Shown here: positions 16,654 to 52,763 of the stretch, piece after piece
Layout: each line of letters starts with the position of its first letter
How positions within the stretch are numbered: the stretch's first letter is position 1
Source: Amoebidium appalachense
Taxonomy: Eukaryota > Protista > Ichthyosporea
Length of the DNA: 64,000 nt
Assembly: GCA_963693365.1 (NCBI GenBank)
Contig: CAVNZM010000006.1
Coordinates: forward strand, 11,039,355 to 11,103,354
Direction of reading: 5' to 3'
Position numbers and translations under genes: made by a program
The notes under the pieces: model-generated
Databases searched by the model: none
Told to the model about the DNA's origin: nothing
Seen by the model: only the letters and a program-made list of their open reading frames with translations

Positions 16654-17021
16654 AGCTCTTTCCACCTCTCCCCAACGCTTTCACTCTGCCTTCTCCGAGT
16701 CCCCACCTCCCTTTCTACACTTCCCCTCCCTCCCTCATTTCCTCCCTCTCTCCCAAGATCTCTATCCCTCCCTCCCTCGCTCCCAGGTGGGTTTTGTTGG
16801 CGCTCCCAGCCCACTGCTTGCATACATACATTTTGTATGCATGTCGTGCATGCGTATGCCAGCTTCAAATCCAGTGCAAGTACTCCCTGATATTGCAAAG
16901 GCCATGCAAACACGCCATCATTGAATGTAATGCCCCTCGTTCCAACTACGGTAGCAGCCTAACTTGGACGGCCTAGCCATTGCCAACGGTATATACGATT
17001 ACGTATTACTACATACATCGG

Positions 17022-20165: not shown

Positions 20166-20855
20166 ATGGCACTTAGCGAAGATATTCAGTCTGCAGCCAA
20201 GGCCCGCCTGCACGAGCAGGGGGCCATGGCCATGGTACAGTTTCTTCTCACAGCCCCAGCCCCCGCGGACGAGGGCTCTTCCACCCAGCGCCCGCGGCGG
20301 CGCCGTACGTTTTCTGAACTCGAGCGCGACCATGTGTGCCCGCACGTAAGCTGCAGTCGCTGCTATGCCAGCAAGCACGCGCTGCAGCAGCACATACGCC
20401 TCAAGCACCAGTCGCCCTGCGCAAAGGCTGCGGCCAAGCGCAGCTCGTCTTCATCCTCGTCAGCACGAAACTCGCCCGCGCTGCCCCGCAGCGTCGAGCT
20501 GGCCCAACGTGCCCTCTACAGCCCTCGGCCCCGTGCCATGAGCTCCCCCCTCACCTTCTCAAACTGCGCTACCCCCGAGCTCTACGGGGTTCACCACAGC
20601 CCTCTGACTTACAGCAGCTGCGATTCCACCCCGGTGCAGAGCGCTTGTAGCGACGTAGAGCTTCTGGGCGGTTCGATGGACAGTGCGCTGGAGGCTGCGT
20701 GCCTGGGTGGGTCCATGGACTTTGGCTTCCTCAATGCTTGGGCCGGGCCTTGCGACCAGATCGACCCCAGCCTGCTCTCTCTGCTGGCCGGTGAGCCGCA
20801 GTCACATATGAGCGACATACACGAACTCATGGCCCAGCTTGCCACGGACATGTAA
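20166..20855 (+). CDS. Single C2H2 zinc-finger transcription factor, Con7-like, 229 aa, intronless
   Basis: ATG in ACATGG context and a GC-rich open frame. RPRRRRTFSELERDHVCPHVSCSRCYASKHALQQHIRLKH is a basic patch plus C-x4-C-x12-H-x4-H, resembling the fungal Con7 motif RPRRRxEEIERxYxC. The C-terminus is acidic and Ser-rich; AATAAA occurs near 21043. Confidence 0.88.
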   Translation: MALSEDIQSAAKARLHEQGAMAMVQFLLTAPAPADEGSSTQRPRRRRTFSELERDHVCPHVSCSRCYASKHALQQHIRLKHQSPCAKAAAKRSSSSSSSARNSPALPRSVELAQRALYSPRPRAMSSPLTFSNCATPELYGVHHSPLTYSSCDSTPVQSACSDVELLGGSMDSALEAACLGGSMDFGFLNAWAGPCDQIDPSLLSLLAGEPQSHMSDIHELMAQLATDM

Positions 20856-27686: not shown

Positions 27687-35686
<8,000 letters not shown>

Positions 35687-40012: not shown

Positions 40013-40421
40013 CCGCAATCCTGGGAAAGTGGCTCAGAGCTTCAGTCGTGGAAACTGGACAAGTGAATTCTTGGATGTAACAGAATAGTATTTTTTTTTT
40101 TTTTTTTTTGTAAATTGTTAACAGCTACCTTACGGAGTAAAGCCACTTCCTGCTTACTTCTTTATTAGGGGTTTCTCTTCTTTTTTGTGCAACCTTGCAG
40201 GTGCACCAGCTGTTCAGTACCGACCGCCTAAGCTGTGGTGACTCAATTCTTGTGGCAGTTCTCCCTGCAAGCTGTTCTCTCAACACCACCTGGACAAGCT
40301 TCCATCTGTGCCAACCTATGTATCATTCACTTCCCTGGCTACACCAATCAGTGCTTTAACACACGCCAATTCCCTATATGGCACTATCTCTCTTCTTCCA
40401 GCAGGCAGATATTGGGACACA

Positions 40422-41204
40422 ATGAGTGCAAAGGGGGCCAGCGTGCAGCTGCCTGGGCCTGTGGCCGTTGAGGCTCACGCTATGCCGTCTGTGCTGTACA
40501 GACCCACCGAGCGACACGTGGACTTTGACAAGCAGCCTGGCATGCACCTGGGCGTGACTCTTGCGTGCATACGCAAACGGTTCTACGTGGCGCACGTCAA
40601 CAGGAAGAGCAAGGCCTGGCGCCTGGGCCTGGAGGTGGGCGACAGGCTGGAGGGTGTAAACAATTTGTCGCTGAAAGACACACACAGAAACGGCACGGCA
40701 ATAACGGCACGCAGGGTGCTCGACCTGCTGTGGGCCGCCAGTCATGTTTCTTTGGTGGTCACGGACAGGTGTCTAGGTGCGGACGACGTGAGGCGCTATG
40801 TGGAGAGGAGGGCACCCGGGGTGCGGCCCAGGGCGCCTGCCGCCTGCCCTGGCAGAAGGGCCTCGTGGCCTCTTGCAGAGCCTCTGACCGTGCAGCCAGA
40901 CAGAGGGGGCGTAGAGGGGGTTAACCCGTGCCTGGCTCTTGTGCGGACACGGTCCATAGACCTCGGCAGCACGCACACACACACGGACGACGACTGCAGC
41001 TTGTGTGTGTGCTGCCGGGCAGACAGACGCACAGACACGGAGTGGCTGGGGGACCACATGTATGCAGCCCCGGATGAGGGACAGGCCAGGCGGCTGACTT
41101 CGTTTCTGTCGAACATGGCGCAGACGGTGTTTATCAGCCCGTGGAAGGAGGCAGCATTCTACTCCAATCAGACCGTCATACCGAGCATACTCACCATCTA
41201 CTGA
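40422..41204 (+). CDS. Single PDZ-domain protein (syntenin-like PDZ), 260 aa
   Basis: RHVDFDKQPGMHLGVTLACIRKRFYVAHVNRKSKAWRLGLEVGDRLEGVNN...VSLVVTDR fits the PDZ pattern (LG.. loop, S.A...GL..GD....VN). The frame is GC-rich and uninterrupted. Confidence 0.82.
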   Translation: MSAKGASVQLPGPVAVEAHAMPSVLYRPTERHVDFDKQPGMHLGVTLACIRKRFYVAHVNRKSKAWRLGLEVGDRLEGVNNLSLKDTHRNGTAITARRVLDLLWAASHVSLVVTDRCLGADDVRRYVERRAPGVRPRAPAACPGRRASWPLAEPLTVQPDRGGVEGVNPCLALVRTRSIDLGSTHTHTDDDCSLCVCCRADRRTDTEWLGDHMYAAPDEGQARRLTSFLSNMAQTVFISPWKEAAFYSNQTVIPSILTIY

Positions 41205-45684: not shown

Positions 45685-46001
45685 TCACACCCTCACAATG
45701 TCTTCAGTCATCCCATCCAAACCCAGCTTACAGCCATCGCCAACACTCTCCTCGTTCGGTAATTTATCTTTTTTCTGATTGGCTAAAGCCTCTGCCTGCA
45801 ACTGCTCAGCCACCCATTTGGCAATTAGACTCCTCAGCGCCAAATTTGGGAATAAATGGCCGATCGTGATTGGTGTTTTGGCCTGGGGGTCAGTGTGCTT
45901 CATGTGCACCCACAGAGCCACCGCCTCATATTCGTACGTGGTCCCGGCTGGGGTGATGGCGGGTGTGCGCATGAGCTCGTGCGTGATGGGGCAGATGAAC
46001 T

Positions 46002-46039
<38 letters not shown>

Positions 46040-46069
46040 TGTGTGTGTGTGTGAATGACTGACTGACTG

Positions 46070-46125
<56 letters not shown>

Positions 46126-47654
46126 TGTGTGTGTATGTGTGTGCATGTGTGTGCGTGTGTGTGGTTGTGAGCAGCCCCATGCAGGCGTGTGTACACGCTT
46201 GTGTGGGTTAGGGCCGTTAGGTTTGCAACTGCATATAGTTAGGCAGTCTACAATGCAATACGAAACATCCTCTTATGTGCGGGGACTTTCAAGGAACTCT
46301 ACTTGGCATGCTGCCCAAAGAAAATCATCCCCCCCCCCCCCCCCACCCCCCCCCCCCCGGGGACCCAATCCACCACAGCAGCAACAATAACGTAAAATTT
46401 TAGCCATCATCCAACTGCCATGCCAGTGCAAACAGCACGATGCCACACAGGGATTAGTTTTAGGTAGGCAGAGGCAGAGAGAGGGTGGTCATGTGTGAAT
46501 GCAGGGCACATGGGTACAAAGGGCAGAGGTACTCCTGATAAGGTCACAGTCAGAACACAAGATGATGCAAACACGGTACACGATAAAGAATATGGCGGCG
46601 GGGAGAGGGGGGGAGGGGGGGCCTTAGAGTGCATCTCTAAAGGCACAACAGTGCAGGCCTGACAGCAACGAGGAAGACAAGATCGAGGAATACCTGGGGC
46701 AGGTCCATCCTCTGCTGCAGGGCCTCAGGTATGTCGAGGGCTGGGGGGAAGTGCACAGGGGGGGGTGGGGGCGGCACTCTCTGCCCCTCTGTGGGTGGCT
46801 GGGGGGGCGCATGGCCCTCGTAGGGCCACAGAGAGTCCAGCTCGATGGGCCCAAACCCATAGCCCTGCGCACGTGCATGGCTGCCTGGGGGTGCTGGGGG
46901 GGTGCGGTTGCCAAGCAGAAACACAACCAGAGACACGTAGAACACCGCATCACTAACAAGGGAGGGGGCCGCCTGCCACAGGAGTAGGTGGAGCACGTTG
47001 ATCCAGAATCCAGTCCCCTCGCGATGCAGCGAGGTGCGTAGCCATGCGCGGGTGTCTTTAAGAGTGAGGGTGTCGAACAGGGCCATGCCGGCACTGAGAT
47101 TAAAGAGCACCACGAGGAAGCAGTGCATGCGCAGAAACCGCCAGGAATGGTATGCAAGCACAAGGCGGGGGGCCAATAGGAATAGCCCCACGTACGCCAC
47201 ACGACCGAGGTAGCTGTCTAAGAAACCGAATTCCTCCCCGGCCCCAAAAATATCAACGGTGCCCTGTGTGTGTGTTTGTGTGTGTGTGTGTATGTGTGTG
47301 TGTGCACTTGCATATAGCTCATACACATACGTTCAAAGGAGCAGTCACCGTTAAGTTTCATGAAGTACGGTACCTTCATAAAACCAACATTAGAGATGGC
47401 TTAAATACAGCATTCAAGCAAAAAACACTCAAGTGCATGAACGGCCTTGCATACAGCATGCTACCTTCATCTTCCATATCACAAACGGCAGCCCTTCCCA
47501 AGCAGAACCCTCTGATATCTCGCAGTTACATCAACTTACTCTCTGCCCATGATCGTTGTAAAACTCAACCTCTCCCCCCTCCCCCCCCTCTCCCCCCCCC
47601 CCCCCCCCCCCCCCCGCCCCCCCTCCCCGCCCCCCCTCCCCCTCCCCCCCCTCC

Positions 47655-47685
<31 letters not shown>

Positions 47686-47814
47686 AAAAAAAAAAAAAAA
47701 AAACCCCTCCACCCCCGGGGCCCCGCTTGCCAATAAACACGGCGATCTCAGAGACTTTGACAGAGGCAGCCACACACACACACCACACATTTGTAGAACA
47801 AGAACACACATGCA

Positions 47815-47864
<50 letters not shown>

Positions 47865-49121
47865 CCCACACACGAGCGCAAGAAAGAAGGCAAGCCACGT
47901 ACCTCGGACAACCACAGCCACACGACAGTCAGGCGGGGGCAGTTTATGAGCCCCGACAGGAACAGGTTTGCTCGAACTTTCTTCAGTCGCCGGTAGTCCC
48001 AAAAGTTCACCAAGTCACCGTCTGCCCTGGGGGGTGTGTCCGTGGGCAGGGACGGCACACCGGGGGGTGGTTGGGTCTCTGGCGGATATGGTTGCTCGGT
48101 CTAGAATAGCCCGGGGTGGGAGGGGAGGGGGTGTGGGGGGTGTGAGGGGGGAGAGTAGGTGTGTGAATTATTAGGGAAGGGGGGAAGAAGGGGGGGGGGG
48201 GGGGGGGGGAAGGGGGGGGAATCAATGGTGGAAACACCCACGGTCAGTCTCAAAAATAAACTGAATGGAAATGAAAGGGCGGGGAACTCAACTTATGTAC
48301 AGCCTGACAGAGCTGCATGACAATGTGCAAGGCAGGAGGTGGGCGCATGTGAACAATGACTGGATGTGTTAAGCCGACCTGGGCATATCTTTCAATGGAG
48401 CAGAAGGCCATGGTACAGGTGGGTGGGACAGATGAAAGTGAAGGCTTTGCTGGAAAATATGGGGGGAAAGGGTGGGGGTATAGAGGGGGGTAATATTTGA
48501 TGTGTTGTGCAAGGGATTGATGGATTGGGTGGGATGCTGTGTGTGTGCGGTTGTGCGTGCGTGGGTGTCACCCTTGTTCGTGTGTGTGCGGCTGATATAT
48601 TCCTGTGCATTTTCATGGCATGTAGCCTCTTTTGGTGATCACACCTAGTTGTGCAATCTGGTAGCTTTTTAGGTTGACCAGCTACACAACATACATCCTT
48701 GTACATAAGGAAAAACCACACTCACCTGTGTCCTTTGCGGCTCCAACCCCCTCTCATGCCCAGCCAATCTCCTGACACTGGTCTCTATTATCCTGCGGTG
48801 CAGTGGCAAGTCCACACCAAAGGCCTCCAGGTCTTTGCCATCGAGTTCCAATAGTGCCCTCCCATCCACATAGTTCTCTTTGAGCCGTGCACTGTACACA
48901 CCAAAGTGGGGTGACCCAGACAAGGACGCAACCCATTCAGCTACCTCATGCAGGGTCCACTCGTGCACTGCTTTGGTTGCTTGTGTCGGCGGGGGGGCTG
49001 CGCAGTGGCTGTGTGCTTTTTCTGCTGGTGCACTTGTGCACGCAGTGCTTGAGTGTGTGTCGATGCTCATAGTTGCCCCCATGACGGTGGCCAAAATGGC
49101 AAGTAAGAAATGGAGACGCAT
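45685..49121 (-). CDS. BFAR-like membrane E3 ligase: signal peptide, SAM domain, BFAR-like TM region and C-terminal U-box; 493 aa, 4 exons
   Basis: Exons 49121-48726, 48100-47903, 47263-46694 and 46002-45685, all phase 0, total 1482 nt. SAM: VHEWTLHEVAEWVASL...VDGRALLELDGKDLEAFGV...HRRII. BFAR-like: NFWDYR...CPRLTVVWLWL and WQAAPSLVSDAVFYVSL. U-box: LPQ|EFICPITHELMRTPAITPAGTTYE...DP...LFPNLALRSLIAKW. Confidence 0.88.
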
Positions 49122-50861
49122 CTTATAAATTGTTGCGACAGCCTCAAGAATGCTCCGTGCCAAAAGTGCTGAGTGAGAAGAAAACCAAACACGAGTTAAG
49201 ACGAATGTGTTTTAGAAGCCCACTTAGCGCAAAAATAGAAGACGGCGAGGTTGCAGCTGTGAGGACAGGGCCTAGCGTACTCGAACACGGCATGTTCTGT
49301 GTGTGTACGGGCTAGATATACCCTACACCTGCATATGTACATACAAACTACGCTGTTGATCATGCGTTGTTGTCCTTTGAAAAGGTTTGTTTACGCACTT
49401 GTTCGGACTCTGTGGGAGCTGCCCCCTCAGAAACGCGTGATGAAGCTTTGAAGGGCATGCACACAGTCCACTGACCGGTGTGTTTCCTCCGTTGTTCCCC
49501 AGGCACAACATCAATTGAAGTCATACTGGTGGCCTTGACAGCCAATCAGCAGCCGGCCAAGAGGAGGGTGAACGTAAATAACATGTCATACAAACCCATC
49601 CACGTTCAAAAAAGCAACAAGTATACTGCATGTATGCACAAACATCATAAAAATTACAAAGCAGACGCCCCAACTTTTTACTAGCTTATTTTCAAAAAAA
49701 TTGAAATTGTTGAAGTTGTTTCAACTTTGAAGTACTGTATACAAGTGAAGAAGACACTGACTTAGTTTTCGTGCCTCAGGAATGCTTCACAATTTTGTTT
49801 GCATCTTTACCCAATTGAAAGTCGATGACGAAGGTAAGAACCAATCATAAATTAGCATGATAAATGCGCCATTTGCTGATTGGCTTTTCCAGCACCATGA
49901 AAAACTGTAAAGGCGCACTGGCTGAAGCGCTTTCCACCAATCGCATACCGCAAATAGAATAAATCTATTCGCTTTCGTCAATAGATCTCAAACACTTTCG
50001 AATGGCAAAGCACGGCCCTCAGAGGGCCGTGGGCAAAGTCACCAGACTCACCACCACCGTTGACAATTAAATTTGAAGTTTTGGAGCTCTCGATCGAGCT
50101 CAGTTTTTTTTATGGCATGCAGCACGTCCACAGATAATGGGCAGCGAGAGCTTGAGTGCGCATTTGCGAAAAAGTCATCACTTGGCCGGATGATTTGCTC
50201 AACATAATAATTAGAAGGTATTGTCGACATAATATAATTATTCTTGTAGCTGCCATCGAGCTACTGCGGCCGCCACATCAGAAACTTTGCACATGCTGGA
50301 TTGCGCCAATGAGGGTCTGGTACTGCAAGCACTTGCACGCAACCCGTCCCCCCCTCCCCCCCCCCCCCCCCACCCACACACAAAAAAAAAAAAAAAGAAA
50401 AAAAAAAAAGACGAGCGCGCCGTGACATGCGCAGTGTCACGTACACACACCCACACAACCACCCAGGAGAAAGCTCTCGTGGACAACGAGCATACATGTT
50501 ACCGTCCCCAGCACGCTGCCATTGCCATCGTGCACACAGAAGGGTCCCGGACAAGAATGAGGGAGAAAGCTCTTTGATACTGTTGTGCGTATGTATGTGT
50601 GTGTGTGTGTGTGCGCGCGCGCGGCGCTGTTACTGTGTAGCACAGATAAATGGGGGTTGCATGGACTACCAGGTGCCACACTCTCAACCGTTACAGCTAG
50701 CATGACCTCTCAAACCCCGACTAGCTACTGATCTACCAGGCCATCAGATTCAATTTAAGTGTGTTAAATATACTTTAAGGGGCCGATGCCCTCATACTCC
50801 CGCCCACCAACCCCAGAAAAACAACCAGTCAGATTATTCGCATAAATTTAACCATGCCATG

Positions 50862-51890
50862 CTATTGGCTGGCTGCAGGGGGCTGCTCTTCCTCCTTACG
50901 AGGCACGGCTACACGATTGAAGTTTTTGTTGCGCTCCTGCATCTTCATGTCATACTGCGCGGAGGAAGGGGGATTATTGGCACACGTTCAATCAACAGCA
51001 CAAACACACAGCTTAAATGAACACCAGGAACGAGAGGTGTAAAACATGGGAGGGAGGGAGGGGGGGAGGGGGGGGGGGGGGGGGGTAGTGCAGGGACCGG
51101 GCATGAGCAGAAGCTGTCTCTTGGTATGTGTGCACTCCCCCAAGCCAAGTAGAGTAATGTGCGCCCAGTTCCACTCACACCCACACCCATGCCCACTCAT
51201 GCGAGGGAGAGAAACGAAAGAGACAATCGGAAATCTGTGACTGCGAATGTGAGTTTGAGCCCGGATGTGAGTGAGTGGGCAAGCATGTGTGCGTGTGCGT
51301 GCCCATGTGTATCTTTGCTCACGGCAGAACGGGTGGGGAAGAATGGAGGTGCACACCTCCCAACTGCATGCCACCACCATGCCCCCTTTATCTCCCCCCC
51401 CCCCCCCCCCCCCCCCTCCTCCCCTCCCCCCCCCCCCCCCCCACAAAAAAAAATTAAAAAATAAATAAAATAAATAAAATAAAAAACCACTCCCCACCCT
51501 TCCCTTCTTCCCCGGTTTTTACAACATGCATATCATACATAAAATACAAAATATGCACGTGTGCATCAATCCTCGCACACACGCGGGGGCTTGCCCACAC
51601 GCAACACACAGACGCTGCAACACATAACACACACACAATCGGGGATGGACACACACACACACAGATAATCAGTAGCTGCACACACAGGAAGAGATCAACA
51701 GTCACTATGCATGTGAGCACAACGCAGACACAGGGAAGGGGCCACGCACGACTCTCTGCTTGCACTCCTTGTATGCGTCAAACACGGCCTGACACTTGCC
51801 CTTGTCGTAGTTGTTCTCGTCCAGGCAGCGGTAGCTCGCATCTGCCGCCTCCTTGCAGGGGTTGGCGTACTGCGACTGCTGCCGACTCAT
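50862..51890 (-). CDS. COX23: Twin CX9C mitochondrial intermembrane-space protein Cox23/CHCHD7, 77 aa, 2 coding exons
   Basis: Exons 51890-51750 and 50954-50862 give MSRQQSQYANPCKEAADASYRCLDENNYDKGKCQAVFDAYKECKQRV|YDMKMQERNKNFNRVAVPRKEEEQPPAASQ*. CX9C-x10-CX9C with the CLxxNNYD motif typical of Cox23/CHCHD7. An acceptor just before the ATG and a donor at 54140 suggest 5'UTR introns. Confidence 0.88.
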
Positions 51891-52763
51891 GGCCCCTGCA
51901 CGTGCATCCCCACTGTCAGCACGTGCACACGTACACGAACACAAACGCAAAAACAAAGACCAGGCAAAAGCATCGTGCACGCACTATGCCACTGCAGTGT
52001 TGAAGCATATGTGCACGGCAAGCTGTATCCACATGTTTCTGCAGTTGTTCCCCTCTCCCCCCCCCCCCCCCCCTCTCCCCCGGTGTCATTCGTTCCTTTC
52101 CTCTATCTGCCTACGGGAAGAAGGGTGTAGGGAACCAGGGAAGGTGGCGCTACCTTGGGGAGTGCCTGAGGGAGGGGGGAAGGGGAAGGGGGGGGGGGGG
52201 GGGGGGGGGGAGGGGGGGGGGGGGGAGGAAGGGATTAAATACGAGAGTACAAGGCATAAAGCTATGAGAATCTAAGGCCTGTGTGGTAGAGAGAGGGGGG
52301 CTGGTAGGAAGCTTGTGCGTGTCCGTGCGTGTTTTTTGGGGGGAAGACGGAGGTGTGGATGTAGGCACAGAAGGAGCCAGAAGTAAGTGCATGCAGAATA
52401 TTTAGTCTAGCATCAGGGGAGCATGTCTGTGTGTCTGTGTGTGTGTCTGTATGTGTGTGTGTGGGGGGGGGAGAGGGGGGGAAGGAGGGGAATAGTATGC
52501 ATGGTATGGTTGAACGAACAGGGTAGCTGCATAGGCCCACCACCCAGTGGCCTTTATTTGCCTATCAGGAATACAGGCCGGGCTGGGGAAAAGGGAGGGG
52601 GGAAAGATGAATGGGGGAGAGAGATAGAAGAGAGAGCTATACACGGAAAAGGTGCCTGGGAAGGAGCTAGGAGAAGGGGACGAAAGGTAGGGAGGAGGAG
52701 GGATGATTTAGGCAATCAAGTGACTGCTAAAAGGTGGCCACTTTATCAAAGTGGAGCAAGATT

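Follow-up and report, generated by a model that had tools for sequence, protein, structure and literature searches.

A spliced gene of Amoebidium appalachense joining a SAM domain and a BFAR-related membrane core to a C-terminal U-box

Gene structure, transcripts and domains

The window analyzed here is a 64,000-nucleotide stretch of the Amoebidium appalachense assembly GCA_963693365.1 (contig CAVNZM010000006.1, positions 11,039,355 to 11,103,354), and the gene under study occupies positions 45685–49121 on its minus strand. Exon 1 (49121–48726; aa 1–132) encodes a hydrophobic N-terminus, a Ser/Thr/Pro/Ala linker and a SAM domain; exon 2 (48100–47903; aa 133–198) a Pro-rich insert followed by an N-x-W-x-Y-[KR]-x17-PRL block; exon 3 (47263–46694) a membrane block and then a Pro-rich linker; and exon 4 (46002–45685) a U-box and a charged tail, stop codon included. 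All three introns are GT-AG and in phase 0, and the joined four-exon frame is open for 493 aa.

This structure, first proposed in a sequence-only reading of the DNA, is borne out by transcript contigs that skip all three introns. The contigs come from X1 and X2, of one sample in one study, the two of three compared runs that cover the exons. No run is catalogued as RNA; the contigs were taken as such on the program's guess together with the skipping of introns at GT-AG ends. The exon 1–2 joint is read directly in the X1/X2 contigs, while the 2–3 and 3–4 joints appear as pieces of one record each at the correct offsets. X2 record 11 (1339 nt) is colinear with 49485–48726 and continues through exon 2 and exon 3 to 46883 without a mismatch, and X1 record 2 (662 nt) takes in the part of exon 3 from 46894 onward plus exon 4. 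The latter departs from the genome at 46005, in a repeat-free stretch, and goes on with the end of exon 3, thereby confirming the 46694>46002 junction. The two records overlap by 12 nt inside exon 3; since no one contig covers four exons, the SAM and U-box exons are linked through the exon 3 that both contigs share. The possibility that the U-box exon belongs to a separate transcript did not hold, as exon 4 is spliced to exon 3. A contig loose end at 45893 was considered as an alternative splice form and rejected as a repeat artefact, given that it has no match in the window, lacks a GT donor and is absent on the repeat-free stretch. A low-depth X1 contig (48266–48755, minus strand; depth 7 versus approximately 180–225) passes from exon 1 into intron 1 and may represent a retained intron, pre-mRNA or DNA.

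Upstream of the ATG, the 5′ leader (49122–49485, minus strand) is unspliced over 364 nt in one contig (X2 record 11), so that the transcript it represents has no space to accommodate a RING exon. The main frame meets an in-frame stop 31 codons 5′ of the ATG, and no RING-like Cys/His pattern was found in the three minus-strand frames of the 1.7 kb to the neighboring gene (49122–50861). These observations uphold the earlier claim that no upstream RING exon precedes the gene; a rare longer isoform may exist besides the contig-supported transcript. The leader also contains five upstream ATGs with short ORFs of 3–55 aa, all closing before the main start and none joining the main frame, which could reflect translational control or, possibly, a usual transcription start nearer to the ATG, as where X1 record 5 begins (49319). 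Just upstream of the 5′ end of the longest contig, a cluster of five words resembling the CCAAT box (four ATTGG, one CCAAT) lies at 49546–49941 on the minus strand and likely marks the promoter.

The upstream same-strand neighbor (50862–51902, minus strand) is a small spliced twin-Cx9C gene (CHCH/CMC4-like) that ends near 50862. Across 217 of the 227 ORF fragments in the window (the other 10 lie within the gene), Pfam returned only RING-like, PDZ and CHCH matches. The RING-like fragment (16749–16958, minus strand) lies 29 kb downstream of the gene and is unrelated to it by position. The PDZ-domain exon (40404–40787, plus strand) weakly matches the PDZ domains of GRIP, PDZD7, harmonin and scribble (best E 0.003), and these animal-type matches offer a faint hint of kinship with animals. 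Also present are a single C2H2 finger after a basic run (20256–20849, plus strand) and an EI24-like exon (30183–30341, minus strand).

The encoded protein opens with a putative signal peptide (49071–49121, minus strand; approximately aa 1–17), recognized by hydropathy as one Arg followed by an 11-residue hydrophobic run. Its best 11-mer reaches 2.48 and its best 19-mer 1.64; in two BFARs the first anchor helix attains 19-mer values of 2.69 and 3.26. The SAM domain (48765–48968, minus strand; aa 52–119) matches SAM_1 with 40.4 bits against a Pfam cut-off of 23 (PF00536, E 3.8e-10), and in exon 1 Pfam detected neither an EF-hand nor any other sensor family. Exons 2 and 3 matched no Pfam family. 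Approximately 270 aa, including the membrane block, separate the SAM from the U-box. The N-x-W-x-Y-[KR]-x17-PRL block of exon 2 corresponds to the first re-entrant pair in the BFAR model. The membrane block (46907–47209, minus strand; approximately aa 217–317, in exon 3) contains the predicted second re-entrant pair around Pro230 and predicted crossing helices at approximately 244–262, 282–296 and 297–317. It is followed by the Pro-rich linker (46694–46906, minus strand; aa 318–388), whose final 14 residues are common to the Coccomyxa protein described below. The hydropathy profile of the whole protein has five peaks; in correction of the multi-TM block of the sequence-only reading, one of the peaks is the N-terminus and two are, by alignment to BFAR, likely re-entrant rather than membrane-crossing.

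The U-box (45802–46002, minus strand; aa 389–455) begins at the last splice junction and scores 61 bits against a Pfam cut-off of 21.4 (PF04564, E 1.3e-16), so that both the SAM and the C-terminal U-box recognized earlier stand above their cut-offs. The charged C-terminal tail and stop codon (45685–45801, minus strand) are present in both the gene model and the X1 contig. A U-box that is catalytically weak or dead, in a protein serving as a scaffold or decoy within a ligase complex, would be suggested by Thr401 and Ala429, at positions that are usually Asp and Thr, also in the alignments here. We regard this as highly improbable, given the strength of the domain match and the retention of Ile394, Trp419, Pro427 and a basic residue at 430 in both this protein and its Coccomyxa counterpart. 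The consensus positions of the U-box are kept, and those predicted to contact the E2 are among the conserved ones, as befits a U-box ligase.

Relationship of the membrane core to BFAR

The sequence-only reading had likened the core to BFAR by aligning short motifs. BLASTP with exon 3 gave a best E-value of 5.2, to one BFAR, and aa 1–127 of the exon found no match among 1.84 billion representatives. Comparison with longer proteins yielded no match among 1842 candidates for exon 3 and none among 152 for the SAM. In the ESM Atlas, exon 2 had no usable match, and exon 3 matched only bacterial DUF2809 (0.83), which fell within the chance range and was rejected. We also scanned a degenerate pattern for the exon-2 block over metagenome contigs, viral genomes and prokaryote genomes. 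Four of the 20 metagenome loci proved real (L001, L002, L015 and L008; the best other score was 10.7 bits), whereas the single viral locus and all three prokaryote-genome loci did not.

L001 encodes an intronless RING-TM-SAM-core protein with the RING at its N-terminus. An alignment of L001, L002 and L015 with short SAM/motif fragments of the window protein and L008, containing no exon-3 sequence, was then used as a query and retrieved 16 proteins among 7997 candidates, seven of them combining a RING with the core. Three of these seven are named BFAR or BFAR-like (two from soft corals, one from a fish), and five named Acropora BFAR-like proteins belong to the cluster of a fourth.

From ten proteins we built a BFAR-type profile devoid of window or L008 sequence, and it matches the window protein in ordered pieces: the SAM with 38.3 bits, the motif block with 15.4 and the membrane block with 15.9. 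The motif-block match is circular because that block was the search pattern, and for the same reason the identical N-x-W-x-Y-[KR]-x17-PRL spacing in all seven BFAR-type proteins listed is partly circular; the exon-3 match is not. Exon 3 (aa 199–325) scores 23.9 bits on the part of the profile that follows the search motif, whereas its reversed sequence scores −0.6, the best of 3000 full shuffles 8.6, the best of 3000 hydropathy-keeping local shuffles 16.8 and the best of 10 hydrophobic decoys 2.7 bits. None of the 6000 shuffles reaches the observed value. Over aa 133–325, a range that includes the search motif, the score is 35.4 bits against a best of 3.2 in 2000 shuffles. Profile comparison of the exon 3 region with BFAR was weaker, with a probability of only 32% and an E-value of 4.8e-4. 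The two proteins can be aligned over the full length of the three-helix block, and three prolines are identical in all ten aligned cores, both U-box proteins included. The likeness of the TM block to BFAR is beyond chance in a shuffle test independent of the motifs first aligned, and, as read from sequence, the homology of the core is remote but real. The SAM scores 34.2 bits against that of a coral BFAR (P0007); the best SAM in the PDB reaches 30.4, and the mouse BFAR SAM (1V85) places fifth of 11.

The L001 gene (153–1529, plus strand) is 59% identical to a soft-coral BFAR-like protein, and related fragments (P0008–P0011) end right after the W-E-Y-K motif, as at an intron; L001 is possibly a retrocopy. 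A divergent SAM-core ORF of approximately 265 aa occurs at L002 (294–1094, minus strand), at L015 (1810–2592, minus strand) and in the P0001 cluster. On L002 the 1 kb upstream holds no RING, and none of the nine cluster members is longer. Either its upstream exon lies off the contig, or it represents a third, ligase-free form.

Compared with BFAR (BAR, RNF47), the window protein keeps the order of parts: the SAM comes first, ahead of the membrane core, then the N-x-W-x-Y…PRL block, then the membrane block. At the sequence level, it also has a post-SAM block with the two proline-kinked re-entrant pairs and, by alignment and shuffle test, counterparts of the three C-terminal transmembrane helices. 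It differs from BFAR in lacking the N-terminal RING-HC and a full TMH1, in place of which it has the short hydrophobic N-terminus, in carrying a Pro-rich insert after the SAM, and in extending beyond the last helix into a Pro-rich linker and a U-box, a region represented in BFARs by no more than a short tail. Without RING and TMH1, the window protein is not a member of BFAR; by analogy, it likely works like one.

A second U-box protein in Coccomyxa

One of the metagenome loci, L008 (4943–1557, minus strand), could be modelled from sequence as nine exons with seven GT-AG introns and one GC-AG intron, open for 513 aa as far as the U-box. Its layout comprises a short hydrophobic N-terminus, a SAM, the motif block, a hydrophobic block, a linker and a U-box, with no RING, and an in-frame Met precedes the short hydrophobic run just as in the window gene. 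The modelled protein is identical in 405 of 412 aligned residues to XP_005647634.1 (P0014) of the green alga Coccomyxa subellipsoidea, annotated as a 'U-box-domain-containing protein'. P0014 was retrieved with a query holding L008 fragments and therefore does not constitute an independent third case. The public model of XP_005647634.1 lacks 49 residues at the start and 52 internally, and Pfam finds in it the U-box only and no SAM. The hydrophobic N-terminus, one exon and a portion of the following exon thus seem to be absent from the RefSeq model, an omission that disrupts the SAM.

The SAM plus motif of the Coccomyxa protein scores 70.8 bits on the BFAR profile. Its membrane block alone is not significant (8.1 bits; E-values of 0.024 against BFAR and 0.19 against the window protein), and the HMMER and MAFFT registers differ there. 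The two proteins also diverge in their acidic loop (106 aa in Coccomyxa versus 43), in the long low-complexity tail of the Coccomyxa protein, and in the extra stretches beside the SAM of the window protein, which are low-complexity and absent from Coccomyxa.

The U-box form likely had a single origin, as judged from the sequences. In the 14 residues before the U-box, eight are identical between the two proteins, a level attained by 3 of 5000 shuffles, and both share the same N-terminal solution. An unrooted, core-only tree of 10 rows places both U-box proteins on one side of a 94/96 branch, just below the level that the program stars, with both U-box rows being long branches. These features speak against a U-box gained twice, in the window lineage and in Coccomyxa, or spread by gene transfer, onto a RING-bearing or ligase-free core. 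Such gains are unlikely in our estimation, and would draw on the promiscuity of U-boxes as described in PMC3087547, on the recovery of two lineages only, both of them long branches, and on the similarity of the U-boxes themselves: the window and Coccomyxa domains are 47% identical over 66 aa (49.5 bits), slightly above the best single PDB U-box, rice OsCIE1 (45.4 bits).

The layout is known from these two lineages only. Our literature search, over mostly open-access papers, turned up no account of a U-box attached to a BFAR core, nor of relatives of BFAR beyond animals. Given the Coccomyxa gene, the layout is not a one-off. In bioRxiv 10.1101/2020.03.18.993998, BFAR is listed among unstable ER ligases. 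SAM and U-box are known together, without a membrane block, from WDSUB1 and relatives (PMC3087547), and the main text of that paper contains neither 'transmembrane' nor 'BFAR'. WDSUB1 and the window protein are alike in having a SAM and a C-terminal U-box in one chain. They differ in that WDSUB1 has seven WD40 repeats, whereas the window protein has none and only approximately 50 aa before its SAM, and in the membrane block that separates the SAM and U-box of the window protein and likely sets them on opposite sides.

Predicted topology and evolutionary reading

Human BFAR acts on BI-1 and PNPLA3. Because its RING must face the cytosol, the BFAR SAM would be luminal and the C-terminus cytosolic after three more crossings. 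PMC10861911 models TMH1 of human BFAR as setting the RING and SAM on opposite sides of the membrane, followed by two re-entrant helix pairs and three long helices, and the protein is described there and in PMC4021871 as ER-resident. The latter also reports that the BFAR SAM binds Bcl-2 and Bcl-xL, which would require a cytosolic SAM and conflicts with a luminal position. Our predicted model of a coral BFAR (16 sequences, mean pLDDT 68, pTM 0.42) likewise has two helix pairs and three long helices, as for human BFAR, with helices broken at Pro270, Pro325 and Pro400. Fold searches with it were filled by RING and SAM matches and barely reached the membrane core; the predicted fold of exon 3, two long helices (pTM 0.37), was uninformative.

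From hydropathy, charges and the published prediction for BFAR, we consider the window protein to be, with good probability, a BFAR-related ER-membrane ubiquitin ligase with a predicted signal peptide, a luminal SAM, three predicted crossings and a cytosolic U-box. The short hydrophobic N-terminus would translocate the SAM into the lumen, an uncleaved signal anchor giving the same result. By inference from BFAR, two proline-kinked re-entrant pairs and three crossing helices would follow the SAM, and this core may select membrane or membrane-surface substrates. By the general biology of U-boxes, the domain, placed where BFAR has its cytosolic tail, would bind the E2-ubiquitin conjugate, with the long Pro-rich linker allowing it to reach the substrate. 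Oligomerization of the luminal SAM might cluster the U-boxes, the least supported step. BFAR would reach the same arrangement from the opposite direction, with a cytosolic RING first and then an uncleaved helix that sends the SAM to the lumen. Beyond the observed domain order and core homology, support for what we infer falls from targeting through topology, activity and substrate to the role of the SAM.

Were the N-terminus not a targeting signal, SAM and U-box could both lie in the cytosol, the chain between them passing through the membrane an even number of times. We judge this improbable. It would accord with the older reports of Bcl-2 family binding by the BFAR SAM (PMC4021871), with modest hydrophobic peaks (1.5–1.9) and with the RefSeq Coccomyxa model, which begins after the hydrophobic run. 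Against these, in each of the two U-box genes a short hydrophobic run follows an in-frame Met, the end-to-end alignment with BFAR covers all three helices, and the loop charges (4 K/R and 2 D/E in 263–284; 1 K/R and 5 D/E in 196–220) show a bias that fits three crossings. Sequons between the SAM and the first crossing helix in five of eight BFAR-type proteins argue weakly in the same direction; the predicted luminal part of the window protein contains none. The luminal SAM by way of a signal peptide, as proposed earlier, is likely, but on the model in PMC10861911, in which the BFAR SAM likewise lies opposite the E2-binding domain, it is probably common to BFAR and not special to the window protein.

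The sequence-only reading had further compared the protein to STIM and to a receptor. STIM1/2 consist of a signal peptide, an EF-hand, a luminal SAM, a single transmembrane helix and a channel-activating coiled coil. The window protein resembles them in its predicted signal peptide followed by a luminal SAM, and departs from them in having no EF-hand, several membrane helices rather than one and a U-box instead of a coiled coil; with no EF-hand detected in exon 1 by Pfam, the likeness adds nothing demonstrable. On the receptor reading, the ligase would sit on the cell surface or in endosomes, and its outward-facing SAM would activate the U-box in response to a ligand or to crowding. The predicted topology would be the same, since it holds anywhere in the secretory route, and the sequence carries no obvious ER-retention signal. 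This reading nevertheless seems to us a poor prospect, because BFAR is described as ER-resident in PMC4021871 and PMC10861911, exon 1 holds no sensor family by Pfam, and the extra stretches beside the SAM are low-complexity and missing from Coccomyxa.

For the ER ligase that we favor, the spliced U-box and the BFAR-like core support the central proposal of the sequence-only reading, namely that the SAM-TM core has been joined to two different E2-recruiting domains at opposite ends. The BFAR core is likely older than animals. We entertain, tentatively and at rather less than even odds, a further step: that across eukaryotes the ancestral BFAR had the signal-SAM-core-U-box form and represents an old family of ER ligases distinct from HRD1 and DOA10, in which animals swapped the U-box for a front RING. 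If so, the family would have been hidden by bad gene models; the signal peptide would have become a permanent anchor in animals, with the orientation of SAM and core kept while the catalytic domain changed ends; the SAM-core would be a module for lumen-to-cytosol substrate selection or sensing; and the cytosolic, Bcl-2-binding model of the BFAR SAM would be wrong.

Whatever its origin, the U-box relative offers a natural experiment on BFAR. It fixes the side that each part should face, singles out a few invariant core residues (the three prolines, the W-x-Y and the PRL block) and opens the way to a RING/U-box swap test. It also places the BFAR core outside animals, in a green alga at least, and provides a clean case of one membrane scaffold bearing two E2-binding domains at opposite ends.
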